DNA from: a virus
Virus record (IMG/VR): IMGVR_UViG_3300027852_000015
Span: 1 to 44,092 of that record
Length of the DNA stretch: 44,092 bases
Strand: one strand, 5' to 3'
A program made the position numbers and the translations under genes. The notes under the pieces were generated by a model. That model saw only the letters and a program-made list of their open reading frames with translations, had not been told where the DNA came from and did no database searches. Shown one piece after another: positions 17,869-44,092 of the stretch (its first letter is position 1; every line of letters begins with the position of its first letter).

Positions 17869-18774
17869 ATGGCAGACATAAGCGATCTGACTAATCTAGC
17901 CTCTGCAATAACTACCCTGCAGGGCGGCAAGACTAAAAATAAGCAAACCACCCAGACTGATGTATCTGAAGCTGGGGTAACAGAGCTACTAGACCAGATA
18001 CTATCTGCTCCAGGTGGGGTTAAAGATATCGGCGCCAGTGCTAGACGCGCTGGTATCTATGACGATACTACTTCGGATTTGCTTCTAGGTGAAGCATATG
18101 CTAGCGCAGCCAATAAGGCGGAACTTGCAAGATCTCCTACTACAGTGCGTGGGGAGGTACAGGCCCCAGGAGCTGATATGGCATCTCTGGCAGGTACTCT
18201 AGCTCTTACTACAGCAGGTAATACCTTATTTAAGAAGCTTACCGCAGATACAGCAGCCACGGCCGGTGCTAATCTAGTAAGCGGGACAGCTCCCGCAGCT
18301 TCTTCAGCTGTTTCTGCGGCTTCATTAACAGGCGGCGCTCCTGTGGTAGAAGGTGTTGGAACTATAGCAGGAGGCGTAGGAGGGGTAGGAGGCGTAGGGG
18401 GCGTAACTCTCGGTACTGTGCCAGAGGCTGCAAGTCTTGCTGGCACTAATGTAGCAGCGGGCGCTGGAGAGGGCATAGCCTCTGGGGCTGCAGGGGCAGG
18501 CGCCTCTACCTCAGGTTTAGCTTCTAGCACTAACTTAATTAGTGGCGCAGGCGGGTTAGTAAGCGGCCTGCTACAGGGTAAGGATGGATCACAGGAGCCT
18601 GTATCTTTGGCTGCTACTGCTGGCATGGGCTATGCTTACGGAGGCCCGTATGGAGCTTTGATCGCAGCTGGCGGACAGCTTGTAGGTGGATTACTTTCTG
18701 GCTCAGGTTCCTTCAGCCCTGTTAAAGGTATTAAGACTGGTATTAAGTCTATCGGCAAAGTCTTCGGATTCTAA
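17869..18774 (+). CDS. Gly/Ala-rich internal-virion or ejection-like protein
   Basis: 301 aa of low complexity, with a (GGV)4 run from a 9-bp tandem at 18370-18405. It is the first of three genes of increasing size at the end of the late block. Confidence 0.5.
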   Translation: MADISDLTNLASAITTLQGGKTKNKQTTQTDVSEAGVTELLDQILSAPGGVKDIGASARRAGIYDDTTSDLLLGEAYASAANKAELARSPTTVRGEVQAPGADMASLAGTLALTTAGNTLFKKLTADTAATAGANLVSGTAPAASSAVSAASLTGGAPVVEGVGTIAGGVGGVGGVGGVTLGTVPEAASLAGTNVAAGAGEGIASGAAGAGASTSGLASSTNLISGAGGLVSGLLQGKDGSQEPVSLAATAGMGYAYGGPYGALIAAGGQLVGGLLSGSGSFSPVKGIKTGIKSIGKVFGF

Positions 18775-18785
18775 GGTAACTAGCT

Positions 18786-20582
18786 ATGGGAAACATAGAT
18801 TTCAACTCTATTATGGAAGAGTCCGCAGCTCAGGCAGTTAGTAGCCTAGAGTCTGCGTCTCAGATAGCTGCGCTCCAGAATAAGAGAGCGACTCATGCAA
18901 ATAACCAAGCCGCTGCTTTAGAGACTGCGGCAAGTTTAAAAGCTAGCTCTGACTCTGATGCTGACTTGGCTATGATGCACGCGAAAGCTAATTCAAATAA
19001 GATTGCCAGAGACTTTGGCCTTGATACAGTTAATGCTAACGGGATTATGTCTCAATTAGCTAAGGCTTATAATGCAACTTCTCAGTCATACTATGCGGCA
19101 CAAGCTAAGGTAGATGAAGTTGAGCGAGGCAGTGACCTCCTAGCTAACCCTATGGGCTGGTTTAAAGACATGGTTATAGGGGATGAGATCAGAGCAGATA
19201 GAGATGCAATCGCAGGTAAGAGAGATCAGATAGCTAAAGATCTTGATACAATTAATAAGCTTGTCCAGAAAGACACAGCAACTAGAATGGCTCTGGCTGA
19301 GACTTCTAACGCAGATTCTATAAGAGACAAGGCGGAAGCAGCTGAGACTCTGGCATTTGCACAGGCTGAGGAAGCTAGATCTAATGCAGCAGGCTATGCT
19401 TCTGTAGGGCTTAAGGTTCTAAGAGAATCAGGATCTGAAGCATTCAACAATAGACTTGACATGTTTAAGTTGCAGCAAGCTAACCTAAGACATGAAGACC
19501 AGATGGCTATGCAGAAAGCCAGCTTGGATCAGAGAAAGAAAGAGCTAGAGAAAACTAACGGAAAAGAGGCAGCCAGAACTGCGACAGCTAACTTGGTAGT
19601 AGACTACCGAGATAAGCTGGGCCTGCCTGCGGCCTCTGTTGACATAATTAAGCTTAATATGGATAAGAATAGCGAGCTTGGTGCTATATTCCGTAGGCAG
19701 GCTGAACTAGGTCTACAGTCTTCCGACTCTCAGAGCTTAACTATAGGCACATCTCCTGGGGACTCCTATATGAATGCAGTGGAGTTTGGCTCAGACTTAG
19801 AGTCTCAGGTTGGCACAGAGCAATATGACAGGTTACAAGAAGCTCAGCGTCTGGTTAACGAAGCGGCCGCAAGCATAGGAGGCCAAGCAGGCACAGAAGC
19901 TGCAGCCAACGCAGCTAACTGGGGACTTACTAAGCAGGCAGTTAAAACCAGATCTGGTATTGCCCACGCTCTCTCAGCTGCTCACGGAGAGTTACAGGCC
20001 AAAGCGGATCTTAACTTTGCTTCTAAGCCTTTAGATGTAGATGGCATGCTTGCCACGGCTCCTGGCTTAGCTTATACAAGAGTATTCCAGCAAGTTATCT
20101 CTCCTACTGTGGAGGCTACAGATGCAGATATTACGCTGGATAAGATACTCTCTGGGACTGCGGAACTTTACGCGTCTGGGGAACTTACAAGCTCAGAGGC
20201 TGCGAAAGAGCTGAGAGCTATAGTAAGGCTAGCTGTGGATCAGGAGAATGCAGCAGGTGATAGACTTATTATGGGAGCTAAGCCGCTTAATAATAAGAAG
20301 CTGGAAGTAGTTGTGTCGCAAGGTAAGATATTGCCGTCTGTTAGCTTTGGTATGCCTACGCTGCCGGAACGCCCTGGATCTATAACAGAAGCGGCCAAGC
20401 TTGGGGCAGCTACTGTAGCTAAAGGTGTAATCCCTGGGCTTCATTTTGCTAAACTAGGTAAGACAGATAAACATGTTAAAGTCGACCTGCTTAATCCTAC
20501 AGGAATCGCTACTTACCTGGCCTCTTATCGTGCAACTAAGCTGGCCTCTGATCTAGAACTAGCCAGAACTAAGCAAGACTAA
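18786..20582 (+). CDS. Ala-rich coiled-coil internal-virion or ejection-like protein
   Basis: 598 aa. The call rests on position and composition only. Confidence 0.45.
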   Translation: MGNIDFNSIMEESAAQAVSSLESASQIAALQNKRATHANNQAAALETAASLKASSDSDADLAMMHAKANSNKIARDFGLDTVNANGIMSQLAKAYNATSQSYYAAQAKVDEVERGSDLLANPMGWFKDMVIGDEIRADRDAIAGKRDQIAKDLDTINKLVQKDTATRMALAETSNADSIRDKAEAAETLAFAQAEEARSNAAGYASVGLKVLRESGSEAFNNRLDMFKLQQANLRHEDQMAMQKASLDQRKKELEKTNGKEAARTATANLVVDYRDKLGLPAASVDIIKLNMDKNSELGAIFRRQAELGLQSSDSQSLTIGTSPGDSYMNAVEFGSDLESQVGTEQYDRLQEAQRLVNEAAASIGGQAGTEAAANAANWGLTKQAVKTRSGIAHALSAAHGELQAKADLNFASKPLDVDGMLATAPGLAYTRVFQQVISPTVEATDADITLDKILSGTAELYASGELTSSEAAKELRAIVRLAVDQENAAGDRLIMGAKPLNNKKLEVVVSQGKILPSVSFGMPTLPERPGSITEAAKLGAATVAKGVIPGLHFAKLGKTDKHVKVDLLNPTGIATYLASYRATKLASDLELARTKQD

Positions 20583-29966: not shown

Positions 29967-32160
29967 TACCTCTCCAATATTTTCCGAGTCTGTCTAAATC
30001 TACGGGCACAGTCATAGCTCTGGTTATGCCCTTACAATCGGTAATGTCTACCGGGAATGTCATAAGTTCTTTAACTTTCTCGGCTAAGTCATCCCTGCCA
30101 ATGCGGGTTTGGAATAGAATTGAATCATGTATTTGTACCATAAGTTTGAAATCAGGGTTAAATGCAAGCTCCACAAACACTCGCTTAAACGCTATATCTA
30201 ATATCATTGCGTTAAGAGATTGTGTAACATGGGCTATGTAAGAATTTAAATCTAACTTTGACTTACTTGGATCGCCGAAACAGTAACGTGTCCAGCCGGT
30301 TGCACCTACTAACTTATTTGTCTTTCTTATATCGTTCTTGATTGAATTATAATAGCTTGATTTAACTACGGGGAATGCTTGCTTATAAGATAGAAGTAAT
30401 GCTTCACATACCTCAAGCAGTGTGTAGCGAGATGGAAGACCTAAGAGTCTCTGGGCTTTATATACAGCCTGTGCTCCCATAGTCTCTAGGAGAACTCTCG
30501 CTCCCATATTATAGTTAGCGCCGTGATTAACTCTCTTACCAAGCTGTCTCATCTCTTTAGTTACATCTTCGTAAGGTACACCAAAGAACATAGAGGCTTT
30601 ATATTTATGGGAGTCTACGCCGCTGTTAAATATCTCAAGTAAGTTCTTATCTCCTGAGCTATAGGCTACACCGCGATCCTCTGCCTGCGCATAGTCTGCT
30701 TCCCATAACTCAAAACCTTCATCAGCACACAGAGTTGCTTTAACATCTATGCCATCTTCAGGTTCTTTAGGTATATTCTGCATCTGTAATCCACACCAGA
30801 AGTGGTGAGACTTAGAAGCATTTCTGCCTGTATCAGTTCCGTGAGGGTTAAGAGAGTAAAGAGTGCGACCTAAGAACTCAGAGGAGTCTGCACCTGTCTT
30901 TAAATAGGTTGAGGTAAGTTTCCTAATACCTCGGTAAGAAAGAATCCTAGAAGTAAACCAGTCGGCAAGAGGATGTCTTAGGCCCGCAGCTACTAGAGAC
31001 TTCTCACTTGAATCCTCAGCTTCTTTAATGCCTAGGATATGCAGTAACTGTAGCACTTGCTTAGATGAGCTGGGATTAAAATTTGGGTAGCCTGTGCCTG
31101 CTTGCAGCTCTGCAAGTAACTCTTCCTGCTTACTCTCTCCTCTGGTTGCATGCTCTTCTAGCCTCTCTGGATCTCTCTTCATACCTCGCATCTCACACAT
31201 ATGAGAAGGAAAGTTAAGAGGAAACTTAGCTAGATAGTTTTTCTTAGCCCAGTCAGGTGTCTCAAGTAGCCAGGATAGCGCAGACTCAGCAGTTGCCCAG
31301 CAGTCTAACGCATTATATCTAAAATACTCTGTGCGATCTCCGGTACTAGCTAGGTCTTTCCAGTACATAGAGTCTCGCATAAGAAGCGAGGAGACATTGG
31401 CTAGATCTTTCGGTAACTCTGAATACCAACTGTGCATCATATTAACAGTGTCGTAATAATATCCCCACATAGGGGCACTGTATCTTGCAAAGTAACTCAG
31501 GTCATACTTACCATTCTGCATCACCTTAGGTACTTCAATCTTATTTAGTGCTCTCATTCTTGCAACTGCTGCCGCAGACTCCATAGGTATAACAAACCCC
31601 ATAGCTTTGCCTGTTGCTAGCTGTATGCCACAGTAACCTGCGCATCTTATCGCGGTGTTTCTTCTTACTGTTTCTATATCCACGCCTATAATATCAGACT
31701 CAGATAGAAACTTCTGTGCTTTATGGAAGTCAGTCCCTGTAGCTATCTCGATCCAATCAAACTCAGTAGCTACTCGCCACTTTTTAGGGCGTACCATTTT
31801 AGAGACATACCTACGGTTTAGGAAGTCCCCAAAACTCTTGCTAATTAACTGCTTCATTGGATGTACAAAGAGAAAGGTAAACTCTCCGTACTCTAGCATA
31901 GAGCCAGCATAGTTATTTATATTAGCTTTGGCTGCTCTGCCTTCAGGGAGAATTCTTTTAAGTATATCAAGACGAGTAGTTACCACATGCTTAACTCCGG
32001 CTTTCTTTAAGATTCCACAGAATCCTGCCATAGTGACTATCTCACCTGCAAATACCTTAGACTTAATACCCCCTAAAGCTGGGGTAAATCTAGGTAGATA
32101 CGGCTTGTCTTCGTGGTTAATAGCGACCACAATACCTTTGGGTAACTCCCTGCTGGTCAT
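29959..32160 (-). CDS. family A DNA polymerase with a 3'-5' exonuclease domain
   Basis: Exo motifs VDIET, NGKYDLSYF and YNALDC. Polymerase motif A is DYAQAEDR, motif B is RQLGKRVNHGANYNMG, and motif C is QIHDS. Confidence 0.9.
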   Translation of the reverse strand: MTSRELPKGIVVAINHEDKPYLPRFTPALGGIKSKVFAGEIVTMAGFCGILKKAGVKHVVTTRLDILKRILPEGRAAKANINNYAGSMLEYGEFTFLFVHPMKQLISKSFGDFLNRRYVSKMVRPKKWRVATEFDWIEIATGTDFHKAQKFLSESDIIGVDIETVRRNTAIRCAGYCGIQLATGKAMGFVIPMESAAAVARMRALNKIEVPKVMQNGKYDLSYFARYSAPMWGYYYDTVNMMHSWYSELPKDLANVSSLLMRDSMYWKDLASTGDRTEYFRYNALDCWATAESALSWLLETPDWAKKNYLAKFPLNFPSHMCEMRGMKRDPERLEEHATRGESKQEELLAELQAGTGYPNFNPSSSKQVLQLLHILGIKEAEDSSEKSLVAAGLRHPLADWFTSRILSYRGIRKLTSTYLKTGADSSEFLGRTLYSLNPHGTDTGRNASKSHHFWCGLQMQNIPKEPEDGIDVKATLCADEGFELWEADYAQAEDRGVAYSSGDKNLLEIFNSGVDSHKYKASMFFGVPYEDVTKEMRQLGKRVNHGANYNMGARVLLETMGAQAVYKAQRLLGLPSRYTLLEVCEALLLSYKQAFPVVKSSYYNSIKNDIRKTNKLVGATGWTRYCFGDPSKSKLDLNSYIAHVTQSLNAMILDIAFKRVFVELAFNPDFKLMVQIHDSILFQTRIGRDDLAEKVKELMTFPVDITDCKGITRAMTVPVDLDRLGKYWRGNE

Positions 32161-32459
32161 AGGGAATCTCGCAGACGTGCCTGAGCTACTCTAGAGGCTG
32201 TCGCTGCGCGCTTCTGCCTCTTAGCTGTATTCTCTCTGTCTTTATACGCAATACTTAATACGTCATTATCATGAGCAGAGACACCGGCAGGTATATGCTG
32301 CATCTTGCCGCCTTTAGCTAGAAACCGCTCGGTGTCTTTCTTGTGCTGCTCAACTCTCTCAGCCTTAGTTAGCTCTGCAGGATAAGCTTTCGCATACCTT
32401 GCATACTTATCATATCTGTTTGTGTTTGCTTTTAGGTCTTCCTTACTTATATCTGACAT
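32157..32459 (-). CDS. hypothetical basic protein
   Basis: 100-aa ORF whose stop overlaps the polymerase start. Confidence 0.6.
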   Translation of the reverse strand: MSDISKEDLKANTNRYDKYARYAKAYPAELTKAERVEQHKKDTERFLAKGGKMQHIPAGVSAHDNDVLSIAYKDRENTAKRQKRAATASRVAQARLRDSL

Positions 32460-33106: not shown

Positions 33107-33904
33107 TTATTTAAACAAATCAAATAATTCTGGCTTCTCTTTGTCTTCCATAACAGTCCCAGACCTACTGCCTGTGACTATGCTATTCTTATAGGCTGTA
33201 CTTGAAGCTGCTTTGTGCTTCTTATTAGTTACTTCACAGTAAACAACCTCACCAAAATACTTGGCTGAGTTACGAGAGAAGTTCTGTGTCCCAGCTGTAG
33301 GAACAATCTTCTCCTTACCGTCTACCATAGTTACTCCAGTCTCATGCGATATACACACCACATTATACGGCGCATTCTGGACATAAGATAGAAAGTTATC
33401 TAACACATTGCCAAGCTTAGCCCAGTCGTCAAACTCAAACTTGTAGTCATCCGGTTTATTTCTTGCTATGTTAGCTTTAGCAGAGGAAGTTAGCTGAGTT
33501 ATTGAATCAAATACTACTGCTTGATCCTGTCTCAGCTCGTTAAGACACACTCTGGTGACTTCCTTGCCTTCCTTAGCTGTCTTTGTTTTTATGTCAAAGC
33601 ATTTAACACAGTTAACTTTACCGTGCTCTTCGCATATCCAAACCTCTGCGCCTTTAATAACTTTGAGGCAGGTCTCTACTGCAATCGGATACCCTTTAGT
33701 ATCTGGTATCGCAAGCATTTCAATATTAGCTTTGTCTTCAGGGGGCAATTTAAATAGTGTATCTCTGCCATTCTCCAAATCAAACCAGATCAGTTCCTTA
33801 TGTTTAGCTAGACCGCCAACAAGCTCAGTCTTACCCGACTTAGGTGGCCCATATACAAGAACCCTTTTAGTCTTGGCTGCTTCCATATCTGTCATCTTAG
33901 CCAT
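33107..33904 (-). CDS. AAA_24 / Sak4-like RecA-fold ATPase
   Basis: Walker A VLVYGPPKSGKTE, a size of 265 aa, and adjacency to the PD-(D/E)XK nuclease. It carries an extra Cys cluster CEEHGKVNCVKC. Confidence 0.65.
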   Translation of the reverse strand: MAKMTDMEAAKTKRVLVYGPPKSGKTELVGGLAKHKELIWFDLENGRDTLFKLPPEDKANIEMLAIPDTKGYPIAVETCLKVIKGAEVWICEEHGKVNCVKCFDIKTKTAKEGKEVTRVCLNELRQDQAVVFDSITQLTSSAKANIARNKPDDYKFEFDDWAKLGNVLDNFLSYVQNAPYNVVCISHETGVTMVDGKEKIVPTAGTQNFSRNSAKYFGEVVYCEVTNKKHKAASSTAYKNSIVTGSRSGTVMEDKEKPELFDLFK

Positions 33905-34911
33905 TACAGTAACTCCTCTAGCGGTATCTCAAAACTGTAGTCTGTATCTTCTGTCATATCACACTCTCTTAGCGGCTTCATTAAACCCTCTGTATCTAAC
34001 TGGCATAGATCCATATACTCACAAGGTCTGCCGAAATCTACACAGGCGGAACCTTGCATCGGCCATATACCATAGTTACCTTCTTGCTGCACCAGTCTCT
34101 CAACTGTCTGCACATCCCACATACGATCTCGCAACCACAGCGCTCTCTGGTGCATAGTCTTAGGGAACTCAAACTCTTCGTATCTCTCTAGCTTAGTCAT
34201 ATAGATTTTATATAACACTTCATAAGCAGAAGAATCAGGCGCTATTTTATCCAATACTACAGAATAGCCTAGTGCCTGAGCTGAATTCTTATACTGATAA
34301 TGGTTAACCCAAGTGCCGGAGCTAGATTTAATCTCTAAAACTACCAGCTCTCCAGTCATAATGTTTCGTAATACAATATCCATAAAGCCACGGTAAGTAT
34401 GGGTAGTTAGCTCACCGGGTAGCGAGAGTCTGAAACTTAACTCAATCGCATGCTTACCATGCCAAGATGCTACCTCATACTCAGACATATCTCCATCTTC
34501 TAGTGCAGAGCCAAGTATGTTAATAGCTTGAACTAATAATGCGAAAGACTTTTTCTGTTTCGGATTCTCGTCTAAGAACTCTACATCCCACTCTAAGAAC
34601 GCAGCAAATATAGCTTTAGTCTTATCTCGATGAAGAAAGTACTCTGCAATGCCTACACCTAAAGCAGAGCCAAATGCGAAAGTTACATTGGTTGACTGGT
34701 CTAAGGTCTTGGAAGTATTAAGGCATTTAAGCTGGTACTTTCTTGGGCACTTATGGAGTAAGTTAGAGGAGGAATAAGATGTTCTTGTGTATCTTGGATC
34801 AATCTCCCCTTTGTCTAAGCACAATAGAGGTGAGTACGAAGCTTTCTCGGCTTCTGTATATGGAGTATCTAGAAGATCTATAATGTCGAGGCTGCTATCT
34901 AAATCGGACAT
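33904..34911 (-). CDS. PD-(D/E)XK Cas4/RecB-like exonuclease
   Basis: N-terminal CPRKYQLKC, the core D...ExK (FMDIVL...LVVLEIKSS), a Q..Y motif (QYKNSAQALGY), and C-terminal Cys residues CVDFGRPCEYMDLC. Confidence 0.75.
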   Translation of the reverse strand: MSDLDSSLDIIDLLDTPYTEAEKASYSPLLCLDKGEIDPRYTRTSYSSSNLLHKCPRKYQLKCLNTSKTLDQSTNVTFAFGSALGVGIAEYFLHRDKTKAIFAAFLEWDVEFLDENPKQKKSFALLVQAINILGSALEDGDMSEYEVASWHGKHAIELSFRLSLPGELTTHTYRGFMDIVLRNIMTGELVVLEIKSSSGTWVNHYQYKNSAQALGYSVVLDKIAPDSSAYEVLYKIYMTKLERYEEFEFPKTMHQRALWLRDRMWDVQTVERLVQQEGNYGIWPMQGSACVDFGRPCEYMDLCQLDTEGLMKPLRECDMTEDTDYSFEIPLEELL

Positions 34912-35589: not shown

Positions 35590-36120
35590 TTATTTACTTA
35601 ACTTAATTGCTGTAGCAAATGCTACCTCTAACCAGCTTGGATGAACTTTAAATGCTGTTTGTAATCTACTGAATTCGTAAGCTAGACTAGATTCTGCATG
35701 TCTCCCTTCGCAGCCTCCGCAGTAATCTCTTATTCTTGCCTGGCTTAACTCTCCCCAGTAAGCACCACAGAGACATACATCAGGGCCGGAAAGGTCTGGC
35801 TTAAATCTCCCAAGTTCCGTATCTTCACACTGCCCAATTAGATTCTTGCCTAAAGACTTAGCCTTTTTCATGTAATCTATATACATATTATGGCGATCAT
35901 TAAGGTAGAACAGAGCGAATAGCACTAAGTCAGCCTCTCTCTCTGCAAGAGTTCTCTCACCTACTAGGTATTGCGGAAGAGTTTTTGCTGCCCTTGATTT
36001 GGCAGGGAACTGGGTACCGCAGGAATCACAAGAGGTTCCGCTATAGGTCTGCTGCTGTGTAGGTTTTCTTTTTAGCTCTTGTAGCTTTCTTTTTAGTTTT
36101 AGCTGTAGTGATTGTGACAT
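35590..36120 (-). CDS. Cys-rich protein (putative zinc-binding)
   Basis: CDSCG, CLCGAYW and CGGCEGRH, with a Lys-rich N-terminus. Confidence 0.5.
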   Translation of the reverse strand: MSQSLQLKLKRKLQELKRKPTQQQTYSGTSCDSCGTQFPAKSRAAKTLPQYLVGERTLAEREADLVLFALFYLNDRHNMYIDYMKKAKSLGKNLIGQCEDTELGRFKPDLSGPDVCLCGAYWGELSQARIRDYCGGCEGRHAESSLAYEFSRLQTAFKVHPSWLEVAFATAIKLSK

Positions 36121-36325
36121 CTGAGTGAACCTCTAACCCTTTAACAATTCCTGCTATCTCTTCCGGCTCTAAGATAGTGACAATCTCAGGCTCCTCTCTT
36201 AATACTTTATGTATATCAGATAAGATATTAGCAAAATTCGGCAAAGATTGATCCAGAGCTTCTTGTAACTCTGCCATTTGGGTTCTTACTTTGTCTAACT
36301 GGAACTGATTAATTTCTGTGCTCAT
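36041..36325 (-). CDS. hypothetical protein with a Lys-rich tail
   Basis: 94-aa ORF whose last 80 nt overlap the next gene in another frame. Confidence 0.5.
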   Translation of the reverse strand: MSTEINQFQLDKVRTQMAELQEALDQSLPNFANILSDIHKVLREEPEIVTILEPEEIAGIVKGLEVHSDVTITTAKTKKKATRAKKKTYTAADL

Positions 36326-36636: not shown

Positions 36637-36676
36637 ATTAAGCTCTCTATCTAAATCATTTAGGTTTGGGGCATAA

Positions 36677-36710
36677 GAAAGCCCTACACATTTTACCGCA
36701 TAGGGCTTTC
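36677..36710 (-). terminator. hairpin terminator after the 202-aa gene
   Basis: 10-bp stem GAAAGCCCTA / TAGGGCTTTC with a 14-nt loop. On the minus strand it is followed by TTATG, a weak U tract. Confidence 0.5.
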
Positions 36711-36739
36711 TCAGTTACATCTTATTGCTTAAGCAGGAT

Positions 36740-37348
36740 TTATAAGCTGTCAGCAGTCACTTTAATAGACAGCAGCTCTTCCAACTTAGCAGCGGCCCAA
36801 GTACATACACGCTCGTTACGCTCAAGAACTTCAGGAGATACGCCGTCTACGAATGCGGCAAGCTGAGACTGCAACACAGTAAGAACATCATTATCACCAG
36901 CAGCTCGCTTGAAGCGCTCAACAAACAGAGAAGCAGCAGCTTGAACTCGTGCTACATCTTTACCTGTAAGCTCAGGCATAACAGCAATATAATCAACAGC
37001 AAAGACTTCGAGATCGTCTTTAGACAGTACGTTACGGTCAGCCTTGGGAATGTGAGCAATGTAAGCAAGAGACAGTTTGCCTTGCTCTTCTAATGCAGCG
37101 GTCTGCTCTGCGCCAAAGTCTTTGTCGTTAAGAACATAGTTACGAACTTGGTCAACAACGATACCTTGCACAGTATCAACAATCATGGCTCGCAATACAG
37201 CATCTTCGCCAGTAAGAGCTTCGATAATACCGTCAACGGTAGGGGCGCTATGCTCTACAGATACAGAAGGGCGCTTGTAGCCGTCTTTAGTGCGGAAGTG
37301 GAAGTCAGAAGTAACTAATGTAATAAATGCAGATTGTGTAGATGTCAT
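36740..37348 (-). CDS. early protein of unknown function, VTADSL-tail family (paralogue of 42439..43119)
   Basis: 202 aa with its own promoter and terminator. Arg codons are CGT/CGC as in the capsid gene. The C-terminus is ...KVTADSL. Confidence 0.65.
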   Translation of the reverse strand: MTSTQSAFITLVTSDFHFRTKDGYKRPSVSVEHSAPTVDGIIEALTGEDAVLRAMIVDTVQGIVVDQVRNYVLNDKDFGAEQTAALEEQGKLSLAYIAHIPKADRNVLSKDDLEVFAVDYIAVMPELTGKDVARVQAAASLFVERFKRAAGDNDVLTVLQSQLAAFVDGVSPEVLERNERVCTWAAAKLEELLSIKVTADSL

Positions 37349-37430: not shown

Positions 37431-37459
37431 ATAATCTCATATAGATTGGAAGGCGTCAA
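37431..37459 (-). promoter_or_regulatory. sigma70-type early promoter P1 (TTGACG-17-GATTAT with TGn extended -10)
   Basis: Minus strand: TTGACGccttccaatctaTATGAGATTATAG. It sits about 80 nt upstream of the ATG at 37348. Confidence 0.65.
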
Positions 37460-37487: not shown

Positions 37488-39323
37488 TTAAGAATCTATC
37501 TTAGGCTCTGACGAGACCAATAACGATACTTTCGCAGGTCTCTCAGACTGCCCGGCTTTCGTAGTCTTTAAGTTCTTGTCAAAATTAGCCAGTTTCTCTT
37601 CTAAAGTATCTCCCGGAACTCTCTGCGATACCAGACCTTTCACAAACATATCTGGCTCACATATAATATAAAGCTCCTCAGACGCTCTAGTTACAGCTGT
37701 ATAAATAAGCTCTCTGAATAACATAGATTGCTGAGACTTGTGAGTTATAAAAAACACTCTGCGGTACTCAGAGCCTTGCGACTTATGTACAGTTATAGCA
37801 TACGCTAGATCCATAGCATTAATCTCTCCTGAGCCTGTTAGTTCAACAGACTGTTCCAGAGACTCTACATAGACAGTTATTTTATGCGAGGCTTCCCTAG
37901 ATACCTTAGCACCTTCTTGTAGATGCGACTCCATGTTAGCAAGTATTGAGTCTGCATCATCTACGGCCGCAGCCCCATGGTTGGCCACAATTATCTCTGG
38001 ATCTGACTCAACTCCGTTATAAGACATTGTAGGAGAGGGAGGTCTGGGATGTTTCCCGTAATAAGCTCCATTAGTCTCTATGTTAGTTATAATTGCCTCT
38101 GATTTATTATATAAGACTTTGTCCCCAATTCGCAGATACTTCTTAGCAATTCCCGCATATATCTCCCATACAGCTTTCTTAGTTGGATTAGTCTCTATCT
38201 GTGCTAGATGGGAAGCTATTGCATCATTCATCATAACTGTACCGAATGACTTATTGAAAGGTGTAAGTATCACATCTGCGATAGGATCATAAGCACCTGA
38301 GTCTATTAGTTCAGGGAGAAACTTACACATTACTCTGCAAGCTGCAACTTCTGAGTGCGCTTTCTTCCAAGGCCGTATGGTTACATTACCGTGCTCTCCT
38401 ATCTCTGCGTAATCTTGCAGACTATCTGATCTAATAATCTTGCCTTCTCTCACTCTCGTAGCTAGGCGTATAATAGGAGACTGAAGAGCTTGGCGATAAA
38501 TATGGGTAAGTTCCACAGTTGGGCAGCCAAGTTGCATAGCCCAGACAAATATGGATTTACCAAACACAGGAGGTAACTGGTTAATATCTCCCATAATTAT
38601 TATCTGTTTCTTTGAGGTAAGAGCCGCAGCCAAGAGATTCCAGAGTTCCACAGATACCATAGTTGCCTCATCTATGATAAGTATAAGAGGCATTAATGGA
38701 TTCTCTGCGTCGCGCTTAGGTAAGAATTCCATTGAGGTAATATCTTTGCCAGTTTCTAAGTCATAAGTCGAGGAAAATACCGGCTCAAACTCTAACGCTT
38801 TGTGGATAGTTATACAGTTACCTCGTAGGTCTTCAGATAGCGCATGTTTAAGATTCTGCACAGCTTTGTTAGTAAATGAGACACAAGCTAAACTGGGAGT
38901 TCCAGGTTTTAGATGCTTATGTGGTGCAGATATAGGAGGCACTAAGTTATTAGCCATTAATGCGTTAACTATGCCTTTAACTGTGGTGGTTTTACCTGAG
39001 CCTGCTGGGCCTGTTATGACACAAGACTTACCGGAGAGAACTAAGTCTATAGCTTGCTGCTGTTTCTCATTGTAAGGAATTGAGCCAGAGTTTTTAGCTG
39101 CGGACTCTGCCTCTAGTTCTTTCCGAGTCTCAGCCGCTATCGCAGAAGCTAGTTCCGCAGGAGAGGTCACTGGAACTCCGCCTGTTTCTTTATTTCTATC
39201 TAAGACTCCTTGGGATTTAAGTAATTTGGATAGTTTCGCTCTCGCCTGTTTCGCTCTAAACGATTTAAGCTCTGCTGCTTTTCGTTCTGTCTCTCTATCT
39301 AAGTTTCTATCTAAGTCTGTCAT
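37488..39323 (-). CDS. SF1B (RecD/Dda-like) DNA helicase
   Basis: Motif I GPAGSGKTT, motif II LIIDEATM, motif III GDINQLPPV, motif V VHKSQGSEY, motif VI YTAVTRA. Confidence 0.85.
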   Translation of the reverse strand: MTDLDRNLDRETERKAAELKSFRAKQARAKLSKLLKSQGVLDRNKETGGVPVTSPAELASAIAAETRKELEAESAAKNSGSIPYNEKQQQAIDLVLSGKSCVITGPAGSGKTTTVKGIVNALMANNLVPPISAPHKHLKPGTPSLACVSFTNKAVQNLKHALSEDLRGNCITIHKALEFEPVFSSTYDLETGKDITSMEFLPKRDAENPLMPLILIIDEATMVSVELWNLLAAALTSKKQIIIMGDINQLPPVFGKSIFVWAMQLGCPTVELTHIYRQALQSPIIRLATRVREGKIIRSDSLQDYAEIGEHGNVTIRPWKKAHSEVAACRVMCKFLPELIDSGAYDPIADVILTPFNKSFGTVMMNDAIASHLAQIETNPTKKAVWEIYAGIAKKYLRIGDKVLYNKSEAIITNIETNGAYYGKHPRPPSPTMSYNGVESDPEIIVANHGAAAVDDADSILANMESHLQEGAKVSREASHKITVYVESLEQSVELTGSGEINAMDLAYAITVHKSQGSEYRRVFFITHKSQQSMLFRELIYTAVTRASEELYIICEPDMFVKGLVSQRVPGDTLEEKLANFDKNLKTTKAGQSERPAKVSLLVSSEPKIDS

Positions 39324-39333
39324 AGCAAGTTAC

Positions 39334-40404
39334 CTATTTAACTCCATAAGATTGTTTCTGCTCTTCAGTAAGAGACTTAATCCAGATAAGTTTCGCAGAG
39401 ATATAACCCTGTAATGTAGGAAACTTTCTCTTGTCTGGTTCACCTGGATGTAATGGTTTAGAGGGTTTCTTAGGTATTGAGGCAGGTGTCGCAGCTCCAT
39501 TCTCAGATCCATTCTCTGTCTCTCCTAACAGATCCCCAAGTAACGTCTCTGCCTGCGCTGCTTGCTTAATCTCTTTCAATCTAACCGGAGATTTAAACTC
39601 ATCTAACATAGACTTAGCAGTGCGTAACCTTTTAAATAAAGCAAGAGAATGTATTGATCCAATATCTATGCTAGACTCACAGTGCTCTATAAGCTCATCT
39701 ATGTCACCTATAGTTATATCCACAGAAAGTATATCTACTGGAGACTCGAAACTAAACAATTGGGAGATAATAGTTTTCCAGTGGTCTCTCAAAGTAGTAG
39801 TTTTGCCTCCTAAGAGATTCACAGAAGTAGACGGGAAGTTACCTACGTCAGATGCCCACTCTGCCATTAAGCCTGGTAAGAGTTTCTTATTCTTAGCGCC
39901 TGCCATTGCTCCGCGTAAGATACCTAAGATAGTCTCTTCTGCTGGGTCTCTCATATAAGAGGCAGATAGAGAGGCAGAATCCAGATCTAAGTCATCTTTA
40001 TAAATTGAGCAAGAATTTAACTCAGACTCTACCGCATCTAAGTAATGATGTAGATTCTCTAGTTTACAGTTATCTGAGGTAATATGATACTTGGGGAGAG
40101 AATCTATATCTTTATCAGTGTATCTCATTGCAAGAGCTGCTAGTTTCTCTCCATTTTTGCGCCACATTGGGACACAAACTTGCTCTCTTAGTGGCGCATT
40201 CCAGATAACTGGAAACTGTTTAAGTAACGCACACCCAAATAGATGGAGATCCGCAGGAGCCAGTTGCCCTACTGTGAATCTATCTAAGTTTTGCATAATT
40301 AGCGCTTGGATAGGTAACTGGAACATTGGGTGCGGTATCTTACCGTGTCCATTACCTATGTTAGTTTTATACGATACAGCACTATAAGGACAGTATAGTT
40401 TCAT
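39334..40404 (-). CDS. hypothetical protein (candidate replication initiator or helicase loader, from position only)
   Basis: 356-aa ORF directly upstream of the helicase gene. No motif was recognised. Confidence 0.6.
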   Translation of the reverse strand: MKLYCPYSAVSYKTNIGNGHGKIPHPMFQLPIQALIMQNLDRFTVGQLAPADLHLFGCALLKQFPVIWNAPLREQVCVPMWRKNGEKLAALAMRYTDKDIDSLPKYHITSDNCKLENLHHYLDAVESELNSCSIYKDDLDLDSASLSASYMRDPAEETILGILRGAMAGAKNKKLLPGLMAEWASDVGNFPSTSVNLLGGKTTTLRDHWKTIISQLFSFESPVDILSVDITIGDIDELIEHCESSIDIGSIHSLALFKRLRTAKSMLDEFKSPVRLKEIKQAAQAETLLGDLLGETENGSENGAATPASIPKKPSKPLHPGEPDKRKFPTLQGYISAKLIWIKSLTEEQKQSYGVK

Positions 40405-40813: not shown

Positions 40814-40842
40814 ATTGTCTCATAGTCTAGGGGAAATGTCAA
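40814..40842 (-). promoter_or_regulatory. sigma70-type early promoter P3 (TTGACA-17-GACAAT with TGn)
   Basis: Minus strand: TTGACAtttcccctagacTATGAGACAATC. It lies upstream of the mini-genes, the 356-aa gene and the helicase. Confidence 0.55.
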
Positions 40843-41795: not shown

Positions 41796-42082
41796 AGGAA
41801 TGTATCCTGTTAAGTTTGTAAGATATGGGTTGAGGGGTCAATGTCGCGGCGTCGAAAATGGCACGACAATGCGACATCATACCCCCGACCCCCTCGACCC
41901 GTCAACACCTCGACCTCACCTCCTATCTGCCTTAACCTCTATCTCCCATATACCTCTTACCTCTTATACTCTATATCTCCCTTATTCTATCTTAGATACT
42001 CCTTTCTTTTATGGATTAGCCTCTATTTTTTGACCCCACTAAAATATTAATATATAAATAAAATCTATAACTTAGAAGGGCA

Positions 42083-42116
42083 GAGATAGCTAGAGACTAT
42101 GAGATAGCTAGAGACT
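42083..42116 (+). repeat. 16-bp direct repeat gagatagctagagact x2 (18-bp period), with a partial third copy
   Basis: Copies at 42083-42098 and 42101-42116, followed by cagagact at 42119-42126. Confidence 0.85.
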
Positions 42117-42165
42117 GGCAGAGACTAGGAGAGTGTGGGAGATAGATAGATAAGGGAGTAAGATA

Positions 42166-42202
42166 GGGAGGGGGAAAATGGGAGGGATGAGGGGAGGTGG
42201 GG
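42166..42202 (+). other. G-quadruplex-forming motif (six G3-5 runs with loops of 1-5 nt)
   Basis: GGGaGGGGGaaaatGGGaGGGatgaGGGGaggtGGGG. It lies inside a 94-nt C-free stretch (42126-42219). Confidence 0.7.
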
Positions 42203-42385
42203 ATGATTTTTTGTTTTGTCGTGTTGTCGTGTCGCCGCGTCATTTGCGACAATTTGACAATCAATCTGTGAGTCTCTATTTCTATAACTTTCTATTTCTG
42301 TCAGATACTTACCCTAGAAGGTCGTTGCGAAACTGCTCATTCTAGCTCTGTAACTTAACTAGGTGTAAACTTTTCTTTAGGCATT

Positions 42386-42420
42386 AAAAAACCCGTAACT
42401 GAATTAACAGCTACAGGTTT
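42386..42420 (-). terminator. rho-independent terminator after the 226-aa gene
   Basis: Minus strand: AAACCTGTA-(14-nt loop)-TACGGGTTT followed by TTTTTAATG. One G:U pair in the stem. Confidence 0.7.
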
Positions 42421-42438
42421 AAGAGTCTAAAGAGTCTC

Positions 42439-43119
42439 TTATAAAGAATCAGCCGTAACAGCGGTAGAACTAAGAGCCAGCTCATCAATTAACTTAACAG
42501 TCCAATTAATACTTTCTGATACTTCAGCATACTCAACTAATATCTCCTCATCATCTGATTCAGCGACAGCTTCTAGTAACTGCGTAATTGTCTCACCTAC
42601 AACTTGTAAAGCACCAACATTATTAAGAATCGGTTTCATCCTTAACCCAATAATAGTGCCACCGGCATTAGCTTTTGCAGCTTCCTTGTCTAATAGCTTC
42701 TCTGCGTATTTAGCGTAGAATTTGCCAGCGGCTTCGAGAGTCTTATTAGTTACTGCTCTAGTTCTTGTGCCGGTTGATGCCAGGTGGGCTGCCAGTTTCT
42801 CTACTGTAATATCTGATACTTCCGGCTTATATTCCCAGTCTCCCGCTTTAGCTGCAATCAGCTTCTTGCCATATTGCTCTAGTGCTTCATTAACTACCGC
42901 GACTAACTCTGCTGACGCTTCCTGGCTTACTTCCTTATAAGAAACAAATGACCATTTCACAGTATCTCGTTTCTTACCAAAATGTGGCGATGCCTTATCA
43001 GTTACCGCCTTAAAATGAGATACTACTTTCACCTGCTCAACGGTGTTAGCTGTGTTAGCTGTGTTAGCTGTGTTAGCTGTATTAGTTTCGTTTAACTCTA
43101 CTGAATTTAAAGCTTCCAT
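42439..43119 (-). CDS. early protein of unknown function, VTADSL-tail family (paralogue of 36740..37348) with an N-terminal (NTA)n repeat
   Basis: 226 aa. The C-terminal half aligns loosely with the 202-aa protein and ends ...AVTADSL. A terminator follows the gene. Confidence 0.65.
   Translation of the reverse strand: MEALNSVELNETNTANTANTANTANTVEQVKVVSHFKAVTDKASPHFGKKRDTVKWSFVSYKEVSQEASAELVAVVNEALEQYGKKLIAAKAGDWEYKPEVSDITVEKLAAHLASTGTRTRAVTNKTLEAAGKFYAKYAEKLLDKEAAKANAGGTIIGLRMKPILNNVGALQVVGETITQLLEAVAESDDEEILVEYAEVSESINWTVKLIDELALSSTAVTADSL
43043..43087. repeat. 9-bp tandem array gtgttagct x4 plus one degenerate unit
   Basis: Units at 43043, 43052, 43061 and 43070 are identical, and the unit at 43079 is degenerate. 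On the minus strand they encode NTANTANTANTANT. Confidence 0.9.
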
Positions 43120-43203: not shown

Positions 43204-43443
43204 TTACAACTCCAGCCCTCCCGCTTTCGCTATCATCCCACCATTAGAGTTAAAGTGAGTTTCAGAGACAATATCTAGCCTATTTAGCCTAGTCTCAAAC
43301 CTTACACGCCACTTACTATTAGTCTGTGCTTGCCACTCCGTTTGTGTAGCTTCTACCATGGCCGCCTCTTCCCTGGCCGCCTCTTCCCTCATCTTGTCTA
43401 TTACAGCCTGTAATCTAGCCTCTTGCCTATCAAACATGCTCAT
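43204..43443 (-). CDS. hypothetical protein, first early gene
   Basis: 79-aa ORF 29 nt downstream of the predicted P2 start site. GGAAGG ribosome-binding site. Confidence 0.6.
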   Translation of the reverse strand: MSMFDRQEARLQAVIDKMREEAAREEAAMVEATQTEWQAQTNSKWRVRFETRLNRLDIVSETHFNSNGGMIAKAGGLEL

Positions 43444-43478: not shown

Positions 43479-43507
43479 ATAATCTCATATCTCCCCCACC
43501 TTGTCAA
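43479..43507 (-). promoter_or_regulatory. sigma70-type early promoter P2 (TTGACA-17-GATTAT with TGn; TATAAT overlaps it)
   Basis: Minus strand: TTGACAaggtgggggagaTATGAGATTATAATgg. It lies at the head of the minus-strand block. Confidence 0.7.
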
Positions 43508-43905: not shown

Positions 43906-44092
43906 ATGAGCCGGGCCAAAACTAGAACAGAAGAGAGAGCGCTGGAGTTATTAGGCCAAGGTCTCAGTACCGGCGTAGTTGCGTCCGCGTTAGGGGTAAC
44001 AGACTCGGCTATATCTCAGTTATTAGCGGACGAGAATTTTGCCTCAGATGTACAGAAACTTAGATTTGATAGTTTACAGAAATCGACACAGC
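43906..44092 (+). CDS. terS: small terminase-like DNA-binding protein, 5' part (continues at nt 128 after circular closure)
   Basis: ATG at 43906 is in frame with the overlap. The N-terminus MSRAKTRTEERALELLGQGLSTGVVASALGVTDSAISQLL looks like a helix-turn-helix. It is the first gene of the plus-strand block, immediately before terL. Confidence 0.55.
   Translation, partial: MSRAKTRTEERALELLGQGLSTGVVASALGVTDSAISQLLADENFASDVQKLRFDSLQKSTQ
43966..44092. repeat. terminal overlap, copy B (identical to 1-127)
   Basis: Exact duplicate of nt 1-127. It lies inside the terS reading frame. Confidence 0.95.

Follow-up and report, generated by a model that had tools for sequence, protein, structure and literature searches.

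The window analysed here, a stretch of 44,092 nt of viral DNA (IMG/VR record IMGVR_UViG_3300027852_000015), carries in its early arm two genes on the minus strand whose products end in the same six residues, VTADSL. The first, gpA (36740–37348), encodes the A-type member of the pair, a protein of 202 amino acids (aa), and the second, gpB (42439–43119), encodes the B-type member, of 226 aa. Both appear in the list of open reading frames (ORFs), both have relatives in other genomes and both were modeled with AF2 (AlphaFold2); gpB is tied to gpA by homology as well. Their coordinates, lengths and common ending are those given by an earlier reading made from the nucleotide letters without database searches (hereafter the sequence-only reading). 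The ends of the window repeat each other, nt 1–127 being identical to nt 43966–44092 (a 127-nt terminal overlap), which makes the window a circular assembly and the genome complete, at about 43,965 bp.

The sequence-only reading had taken the two proteins for diverged paralogs aligning loosely over their C-terminal halves. Direct comparison by BLASTP gave a weak match (E 0.012, 25% identity over 118 aa), to which the tail contributed part of the signal. Pairwise profile comparison with hhalign confirmed the relationship, with a probability of 89% (E 2.4e-6) over about 179 columns for the first alignments, the tail being excluded, and of 99.0% (E 3.3e-18) for broader alignments, and a hidden Markov model (HMM) built from gpB-like proteins only scored gpA at 60.5 bits. 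By these profile measures gpA and gpB are distantly related but genuine paralogs along almost the whole of their sequences; the similarity of the C-terminal halves is real, but it is not confined to them. The identity between the two protein bodies lies at approximately 18–25%.

The AF2 models agree with each other in the order of the secondary-structure elements. In both, a low-confidence N-terminus is followed by a predicted β-hairpin with the motif FxF[RK]...G.KR, by six or seven helices and by a low-confidence stretch formed by the last eight residues. The gpA model (predicted local distance difference test score, pLDDT, 87.9; predicted template modeling score, pTM, 0.55) features a basic N-terminal β-hairpin (FxFR...GYKRP.V), a helical body and a C-terminal tail that is probably flexible, because it is predicted with low confidence (pLDDT 47). 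The gpB model has the same topology (pLDDT 76.3, pTM 0.45), and its low-confidence N-terminal region contains a (Thr-Ala-Asn)n repeat at residues 13–27 (approximately 43042–43082). One repeat unit fewer is present in the homologue P0047, 99% identical to gpB, which indicates that the copy number of this 9-nt repeat varies among close relatives. Both proteins are acidic and helical, with isoelectric points (pI) of 4.7–5.0 that are ordinary for the proteome of this phage, and the conserved basic residues of these otherwise acidic proteins sit in the hairpin and in the helices. A role as an Ocr-like DNA mimic was considered and found unsupported, the pI being ordinary.

The tail codons lie on the minus strand at 36743–36760 in gpA, directly before the TAA stop at 36740–36742, and at 42442–42459 in gpB, before the TAA stop at 42439–42441. 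The peptide is encoded as GTG ACT GCT GAC AGC TTA in gpA and as GTT ACG GCT GAT TCT TTA in gpB. The same peptide is thus written with different codons, as had been pointed out, and the difference affects four of the six positions. Because these differences include Ser taken from two codon families (AGC and TCT), recent gene conversion cannot explain the identity of the tails.

In relatives the tail is largely kept: 42 of the 44 close A-type proteins, 39–96% identical to gpA, match [IVLM][TS]A[DE]x[LI]-COOH, usually as K[VI]TADAL. Asp is found at position -3 in 43/44 of them and a terminal Leu also in 43/44, and across this range of identities the tail is the best-conserved segment of the protein. 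The B-type representatives, which share no more than 50% identity with one another, have a hydrophobic last residue (L, I, M, F or V) in 66 of 73 cases and Leu at this place in 52, with Ala at -4 in 41/73 and Asp at -3 in 43/73. A more distant A-type clade bears a different, equally fixed tail, L-phi-x-N-L, in which Asn occupies position -2 in 108 of 115 proteins and Leu position -1 in 111. In near relatives the codons of the tail turn over synonymously, the Leu residue being encoded by TTA, CTG, TTG, CTA, CTT or CTC and Ala by all four GCN codons. Since the tail is nearly invariant while its codons change in this way, selection acts on the peptide and is strongly purifying, which bears out the earlier proposal that it is the peptide that is selected.

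Homologues of gpA number 46 in a large protein collection, and gpB has 4 close homologues and 71 cluster representatives (full HMMER scan). A profile of 119 diverse members retrieved 120 proteins at E <= 0.001, with 115 new clusters and lengths of 199–254 aa, all of them metagenomic, devoid of Pfam domains and carrying source names that are either 'hypothetical' or evidently spurious. The family comprises more than 230 metagenomic sequence clusters. Its signature consists of an N-terminal hairpin motif, FxF[RK]...G.KR..V, and a central block, [KR]..R..[ST]K..LE.FA..Y, in proteins of around 190–230 aa, and the window pair fits it. Nearly invariant across the 119 members are Phe36, Arg51 and Tyr135 (gpB numbering) together with the region of the terminal Leu.

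No known family could be assigned to these proteins. Searches of gpA, gpB and their neighbours against Pfam, PHROGs and NCBIfam gave no match for gpA or gpB, the 119 members scanned singly against libraries of this type gave nothing consistent, and a sequence profile of the family found no match in the PDB. Foldseek comparison of the AF2 models with the PDB was also negative (best E 0.35 and 1.2), and a Foldseek search of BFVD returned a single unnamed homologue. A tblastn search with gpA and a distant A-type protein revealed no cultured-phage homologue among 50,697 phage records. The family is phage-specific and uncatalogued in any database searched, and the Pfam, PHROGs, NCBIfam and PDB searches assign it no function, in line with the earlier description of gpA and gpB as proteins of unknown function.

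Comparison of 77 related viral contigs and eight more revealed a conserved gene order around the pair. The large (TerL) and small (TerS) terminase genes run one way; on the opposite strand follow the B-type gene, a gene for an unknown protein of 320–370 aa, a Dda-like helicase gene, the A-type gene and a gene for a protein of about 90 aa (fam3), and then, after a gene for a DDDIPF-ending protein that is found in distant clades only, those for the small protein fam5, a PD-(D/E)XK nuclease, an AAA_24 (Sak4-like) protein, the DNA polymerase PolA and a DUF3987 primase. Wherever the contig extends 9 kb or more upstream of the A-type gene, which is the case at 37 loci, exactly one B-type gene is found, placed 5.1–9.8 kb upstream, and in none of the 37 was a third family copy seen. 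The duplication therefore predates the whole phage group, and both copies have always been retained. The sites are fixed as well: the B-type gene stands at the start of the early arm, and the A-type gene directly follows the Dda-like helicase and heads the exonuclease/Sak4-like recombination genes and the PolA replication genes. The window follows this layout, with gpB placed after the first early promoter and gpA 139 nt downstream of the helicase gene.

That helicase gene (37488–39323, minus strand), the constant upstream neighbour of the A-type gene by synteny, encodes a Dda/RecD-like superfamily 1 (SF1) helicase (PHROG 325, E 3e-70; Pfam AAA_19, AAA_30 and UvrD_C_2), which is a candidate only as partner of the tail. 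Just upstream of it, in the window (39334–40404, minus strand) as throughout the phage group, lies the gene of a 356-aa protein that is strongly conserved at its N-terminus (MKLYCP.S..SY.TNIG.GHGK..HP.F.LP) and has no family match, and that could be a helicase loader or a replication initiator.

Tails of the same kind are also found on proteins outside the family. A scoring matrix derived from the last six residues of the family members was applied to 1,747 other proteins of the related loci, and tail-like hexapeptides were 9-fold enriched at their C-termini (2.5%, versus 0.28% at internal positions) and 34-fold enriched when the cut-off was made stricter. The positive proteins concentrate in few families, chiefly fam5. 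The window member of fam5 (36041–36325, minus strand; fam5 HMM E 5e-26) is a small protein of 94 aa with a helical N-terminal part, a basic linker and the end ...KKKTYTAADL, and hhalign detected no homology between fam5 and the gpA/gpB family (probability <=1%). The protein at the fam5 position bears a similar tail in every relative checked, the ends being ISAADL, ITADML, INADDL, MTADDL, VTAEML or VSAMDL.

In seven genomes of the near clade, 19 of 255 genes carry the tail, versus 1.25 expected. Five further genomes, whose genes were called independently, have tailed A-type and fam5-type proteins in 5/5 (for instance KITADAL), and their B-type protein is tailed wherever it falls inside the fetched DNA. 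Every near-clade genome bears the tail on its A-type, B-type and non-homologous fam5 proteins, and some bear it on TerS. The small-terminase-like gene of the window begins at 43906–44092 on the plus strand and continues at 128–573 over the circular junction; the joined ORF encodes 210 aa with an N-terminal helix-turn-helix-like segment and the end ...CSALAATL, and its counterparts end in SALADAL, SLADSL, VTAEDL or SISVEDLL in some lineages.

A related observation concerns the PD-(D/E)XK nuclease (33904–34911), which ends in ...IPLEELL in the window and in LTLEDLL, DGDEML or ITLEELL in relatives, approximately 46% of its family ending in L or I. These acidic, Leu-rich ends may be a looser version of the tail theme.

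According to the sequence-only reading, each gene of the pair lies in its own promoter-to-terminator unit, and the signals found here sustain that description. A 29-nt pattern with an extended -10 element, TTGAC[GA]-N14-TGAGATTAT, occurs exactly at two places only, 37459–37431 and 43507–43479. The first (37431–37459, minus strand; TTGACG-N14-TGAGATTAT) is a sigma-70-type promoter-like site upstream of gpA, and the second (43479–43507, minus strand; TTGACA-N14-TGAGATTAT) is an equivalent site upstream of gpB and of a 79-aa gene (43204–43443, minus strand) that separates the two. This small gene appears in the ORF list and also in the near-identical contig L083, and its product has no family match in Pfam, PHROGs or NCBIfam. 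Terminator-like hairpins close both units on the minus strand. The one at 36674–36713, 27 nt past the gpA stop, has a folding energy of -26.6 kcal/mol (z -4.8) and a weak U-tail (UUAUGCC); the one at 42389–42420, after gpB, reaches -24.3 kcal/mol (z -5.0) and is followed by a U-run, UUUUUUAAU. None of 200 shuffles was as stable as either hairpin. A generic terminator scan listed neither of them, and promoter-like sites overall in this region are not above the level of shuffles.

The codon usage of gpA had been likened to that of the capsid gene, and for gpA, the one gene for which this had been claimed, the likeness holds: CGT/CGC account for 7 of its 10 Arg codons and AGR for none, compared with 15/17 CGT/CGC in the capsid gene, and the helicase, polymerase, portal and terminase genes use mostly AGA. 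The matching promoters, the strong hairpins and the capsid-like Arg codons of gpA alone are consistent with high expression.

Two further sigma-70-like sites were noticed on the minus strand of the early arm, an intergenic near-copy of the gpA/gpB pattern with two mismatches (40814–40842) and a site in an intergenic gap (41876–41905). No phage RNA polymerase was seen in the window, and the early arm seems to be split into several short units read by the host RNA polymerase.

The 643 bp that follow gpB (41796–42438) contain no convincing ORF and are CT-rich on the minus strand. Iteron-like direct repeats, GAGATAGCTAGAGACT, are present there in three copies at 42082–42132, together with several imperfect inverted repeats, and different short tandem repeats occupy the corresponding place in the relative L001 (4432–4460 and 4859–4922). 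This stretch could be a replication origin or a regulatory region. A structured RNA was considered and rejected, as an Rfam scan found nothing in the window, this stretch included.

The window encodes a Sak4-like AAA_24 protein and the PD-(D/E)XK nuclease, and no single-stranded DNA-binding protein (SSB) could be recognised in it. Distant relatives (contigs L013–L076, for instance L043, 11113–11457, and L022) carry between the A-type and fam5 genes a gene for a protein of about 105–160 aa ending in DMDDDIPF/Y, which is the canonical tip of SSBs. This gene is absent from the window and from its near clade; the protein of the distant relatives has no Pfam or PDB match and is SSB-like by its tail alone. 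Contig L081 encodes downstream of its A-type gene (18437–18844) a 135-aa protein with a precomputed Pfam match to PF21825 (Sequestin), for which no window counterpart was noticed. Just upstream of PolA in the window (32157–32459, minus strand) a 100-aa basic protein ending in ...ARLRDSL shows a sub-threshold match to the SutA RNA polymerase-binding domain (27.8 bits against a cut-off of 29.3), and the same weak match is seen in L083.

The phage belongs to a deeply uncultured lineage. Its capsid and portal proteins are assigned to SU10 families, and its PolA shares only about 30% identity with the best cultured-phage matches, which are Aeromonas phage P5, EBPR podovirus 3 and the Pseudomonas 119X/PaP2 group. 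The early arm found no match by megablast among the 50,697 phage records. The phages carrying gpA and gpB form an uncultured group with genomes of roughly 42–47 kb and an SU10-type capsid. The sole host lead for this group comes from an A-type homologue, P0034, which carries an NCBI name as a protein of Candidatus Macondimonas diazotrophica, a gammaproteobacterium, and which is matched by contig L009 (IMGVR_UViG_2887000654_000007; about 40.5 kb), a genome-derived IMG/VR entry.

The explanation that we favour, although only tentatively, is that the tail is a C-terminal docking peptide that would bring abundant early proteins to one partner in replication, recombination or packaging while the body of the protein binds nucleic acid. 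The tail, phi-[TS]-A-[DE]-x-L-COOH, would act, in the manner of the tips found in bacterial SSB, T7 gp2.5/gp4 or T4 gp32, as a short linear motif whose single acidic side chain, terminal Leu and free carboxylate plug into a pocket of the common partner, and several abundant, stoichiometric early proteins might in this way reach the same DNA-replication, recombination or packaging machine. The first candidates for the partner would be the phage helicase, the Sak4-like ATPase, the large terminase and PolA (pI 8.9), the only one of the large early-arm proteins that is basic. Nucleic-acid binding would be the likeliest activity of the gpA/gpB body, to judge from the conserved basic residues and from the position next to the helicase. 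A precedent is found in phage HK620, whose SSB needs its last six residues to bind its Sak4 (PMC5928155); the window has a Sak4-like protein and is without a recognisable SSB.

The SSB tip (...DDDIPF in E. coli, ...NDYPPF in HK620) resembles the gpA/gpB tail in being a flexible C-terminal peptide of about six residues on a protein whose remainder diverges, with one or more conserved acidic residues, a terminal hydrophobic residue and a free carboxylate. It also belongs to an abundant protein of the replication/recombination module, and here the Sak4-like AAA_24 protein and the nuclease are encoded nearby. Unlike SSB, gpA and gpB are without an OB fold or SSB domain, as judged from Pfam, PHROG, NCBIfam, PDB and the AF2 models, and their tail has a single Asp and a Leu end instead of a run of acidic residues and Pro-Phe. 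SSB-type docking tails, with which the tail had been compared from the outset, are thus an analogy and not a demonstrated mechanism.

In phage T7, the SSB gp2.5 and the helicase-primase gp4 have similar acidic, Phe-ending tails that dock on the T7 DNA polymerase. The likeness lies in different proteins of one phage bearing the same kind of tail, here the A-type, B-type and fam5 proteins and, in some genomes, TerS. The T7 tails differ in being long, strongly acidic and Phe-ending, and the searches turned up no resemblance of gpA or gpB to gp2.5 in sequence or fold.

The C-terminus of T4 gp32, checked as ...DLDDLLNDL, is acidic and Leu-rich with a terminal Leu and resembles the L-phi-x-N-L tails of the distant A-type clade; moreover, Dda is the helicase with which gp32 cooperates, and a Dda-like helicase gene always precedes the A-type gene. 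The analogy with the gp32–Dda pair was nevertheless rejected, because T4 Dda binds residues 248–270 of gp32 and not the extreme tail (PMC11551737). In addition, gp32 is an OB-fold zinc protein with no homology to gpA or gpB. Taken by analogy, the tail would be a shared C-terminal docking motif on a family of unmatched fold, similar to the SSB tip in its working and outside the SSB families.

Several points weigh against this docking explanation. We infer both the docking and the nucleic-acid binding for proteins whose fold has no match in the PDB, and the sole ground for DNA binding is the conserved basic residues and the gene position. One acidic residue and a terminal Leu are unlike the acid-rich, Phe-ending tips of SSB and gp2.5, and the more distant half of the A-type family bears the L-phi-x-N-L tail instead. 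The DDDIPF-ending SSB-like protein coexists with the A-type protein in distant genomes, which also weakens the idea, considered separately, that gpA is itself the SSB of the phage. High expression is not reflected in the codons of gpB, where 0/4 Arg codons are CGT/CGC. A common, co-evolving partner would be expected to produce co-variation between A-type and B-type tails within genomes, and a global permutation test does detect it (z 5.2), but tests that take the tree into account give a weak signal or none (partial Mantel r 0.16, p 0.016; nearest-neighbour 17 versus 16) and contig L081 pairs VTADSL with VTADAL. The co-variation is significant at clade level only and reflects mostly clade structure; strict within-genome co-evolution with a parallel Ala-to-Ser change was accordingly dropped.

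A broader version of the docking explanation, which we consider more doubtful, treats phi-[TS]-A-[DE]-x-L-COOH as a C-terminal 'address tag' that directs the two paralogs, fam5 and some TerS proteins to one phage-encoded hub. If this were true, replication, recombination and packaging factors would swap on a single platform, in a network comparable to those of SSB-tip or sliding-clamp clients, and both the motif and the hub would be undescribed.

The partner of the tail might instead be the family itself. The tail would dock in a pocket of a neighbouring gpA or gpB molecule, perhaps formed by the invariant Arg and Tyr, giving homo- or hetero-oligomers or cooperative filaments, and the tails of fam5 and TerS would perhaps dock on this gpA/gpB hub. 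Such an arrangement would agree with the restriction of near-invariance to Phe36, Arg51, Tyr135 and the terminal Leu region in the 119 members and with the retention of both paralogs in 37/37 genomes; the low pTM values relative to pLDDT (0.55 and 0.45) fit proteins that need partners to adopt a compact state, and homologous pockets would account for the clade-level likeness of the tails. The AF2 monomers show no docking of the tail in cis, though, and the pocket is a conjecture, and we regard this possibility as unlikely. We give a similarly low weight to the proposal that gpA and gpB are host takeover or anti-defence proteins, with a tail that would bind a conserved central factor of the host, for example the β clamp, RNA polymerase, RecBCD or an SSB-tip client. 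At the terminase-side end of the genome the B-type gene follows the early promoter either directly or after one other gene, a typical place for takeover genes, and both proteins are acidic and helical, but this acidity is ordinary for the proteome and the A-type gene sits within replication and recombination genes. The clamp-binding motif is short, often C-terminal and common to many unrelated proteins, which occupy one hub in turn, and x-A-D-x-L is loosely like it, the central A-D of the tail recalling its x-[SD]-x; nevertheless, the motif QL[S/D]LF demands Gln at position 1, with positions 4 and 5 hydrophobic (PMC3919608), whereas the phage tails, [TS]-A-D-[AS]-L, have Thr or Ser and never Gln at position 1, Ala, Ser or Asp at position 4 and Leu at position 5. 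Furthermore, a conserved host pocket predicts a single invariant tail, and the family has two tail types and clade variants.

A small-residue-rich C-terminal motif ending in Leu and shared by several unrelated early proteins could also be a degradation tag through which a host protease clears these proteins on schedule, and phage early regulators, such as lambda O and CII or MuA, are often under proteolytic control. However, ssrA-type ClpXP tags need a non-polar ...LAA-COOH end and are blocked by acidic substitutions, and the tail has Asp two or three residues from its end as the most conserved residue after Leu (at -3 in 43/44 A-type and 43/73 B-type proteins). As gpA moreover has the signatures of a highly expressed, stoichiometric protein, and the small terminase, a late protein, carries the tail in some genomes, we hold a degradation tag to be very unlikely. 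Still less credible is a capsid-targeting peptide that would load the proteins into the HK97-fold capsid for ejection along with the DNA. It is suggested by encapsulins, in which the targeting peptide LTVGSL(R) attaches to the inner face of a shell with the HK97 fold (PMC11126975). That peptide is C-terminal, follows a flexible linker, is common to unrelated cargo and matches VTADSL at three of six residues; the phage capsid protein belongs to an SU10 family, and some fam3 and fam5 tails read SIGSDDL or SIGLEDL. Encapsulin cargo genes are, however, adjacent to the shell gene and co-expressed with it, whereas gpA and gpB are early-arm genes behind sigma-70-type promoters, on the opposite arm and 30–37 kb from the capsid gene, with the A-type gene syntenic with replication genes. 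The family consensus TADAL shares only two of the six residues and has a conserved Asp in place of the conserved Gly, and TerS, a non-virion protein, can bear the tail. Equally hard to credit is that the tails have no function of their own and owe their identity to chance, whether through common descent, low complexity or recent gene conversion. Paralogy does predict some shared residues, but the tails are fully identical on bodies that are not, the AGC and TCT codons speak against recent conversion, the tail is conserved best of all segments, and a non-homologous family also bears it.

Short C-terminal docking peptides organise replisomes, as the SSB tip, the gp2.5 and gp4 tails and the clamp-binding motifs illustrate, and they are also targets for drugs and engineering. 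The present analysis contributes a motif that is clear and under strong selection, on a protein family without known relatives that is always present in two copies. The universal and ancient two-copy layout, the presence of the tail on a non-homologous protein and on some TerS proteins, and the distant L-phi-x-N-L tail go beyond the sequence-only reading. As a lead the finding is solid and easy to test, without being surprising. Should the partner prove ordinary, for instance the helicase, gpA and gpB would still define a new protein family with a defined interaction motif. Otherwise, the partner of the tail could point to the hub at the centre of a phage lineage without any cultured member, and several conserved genes of unknown role in that lineage could receive their first function.

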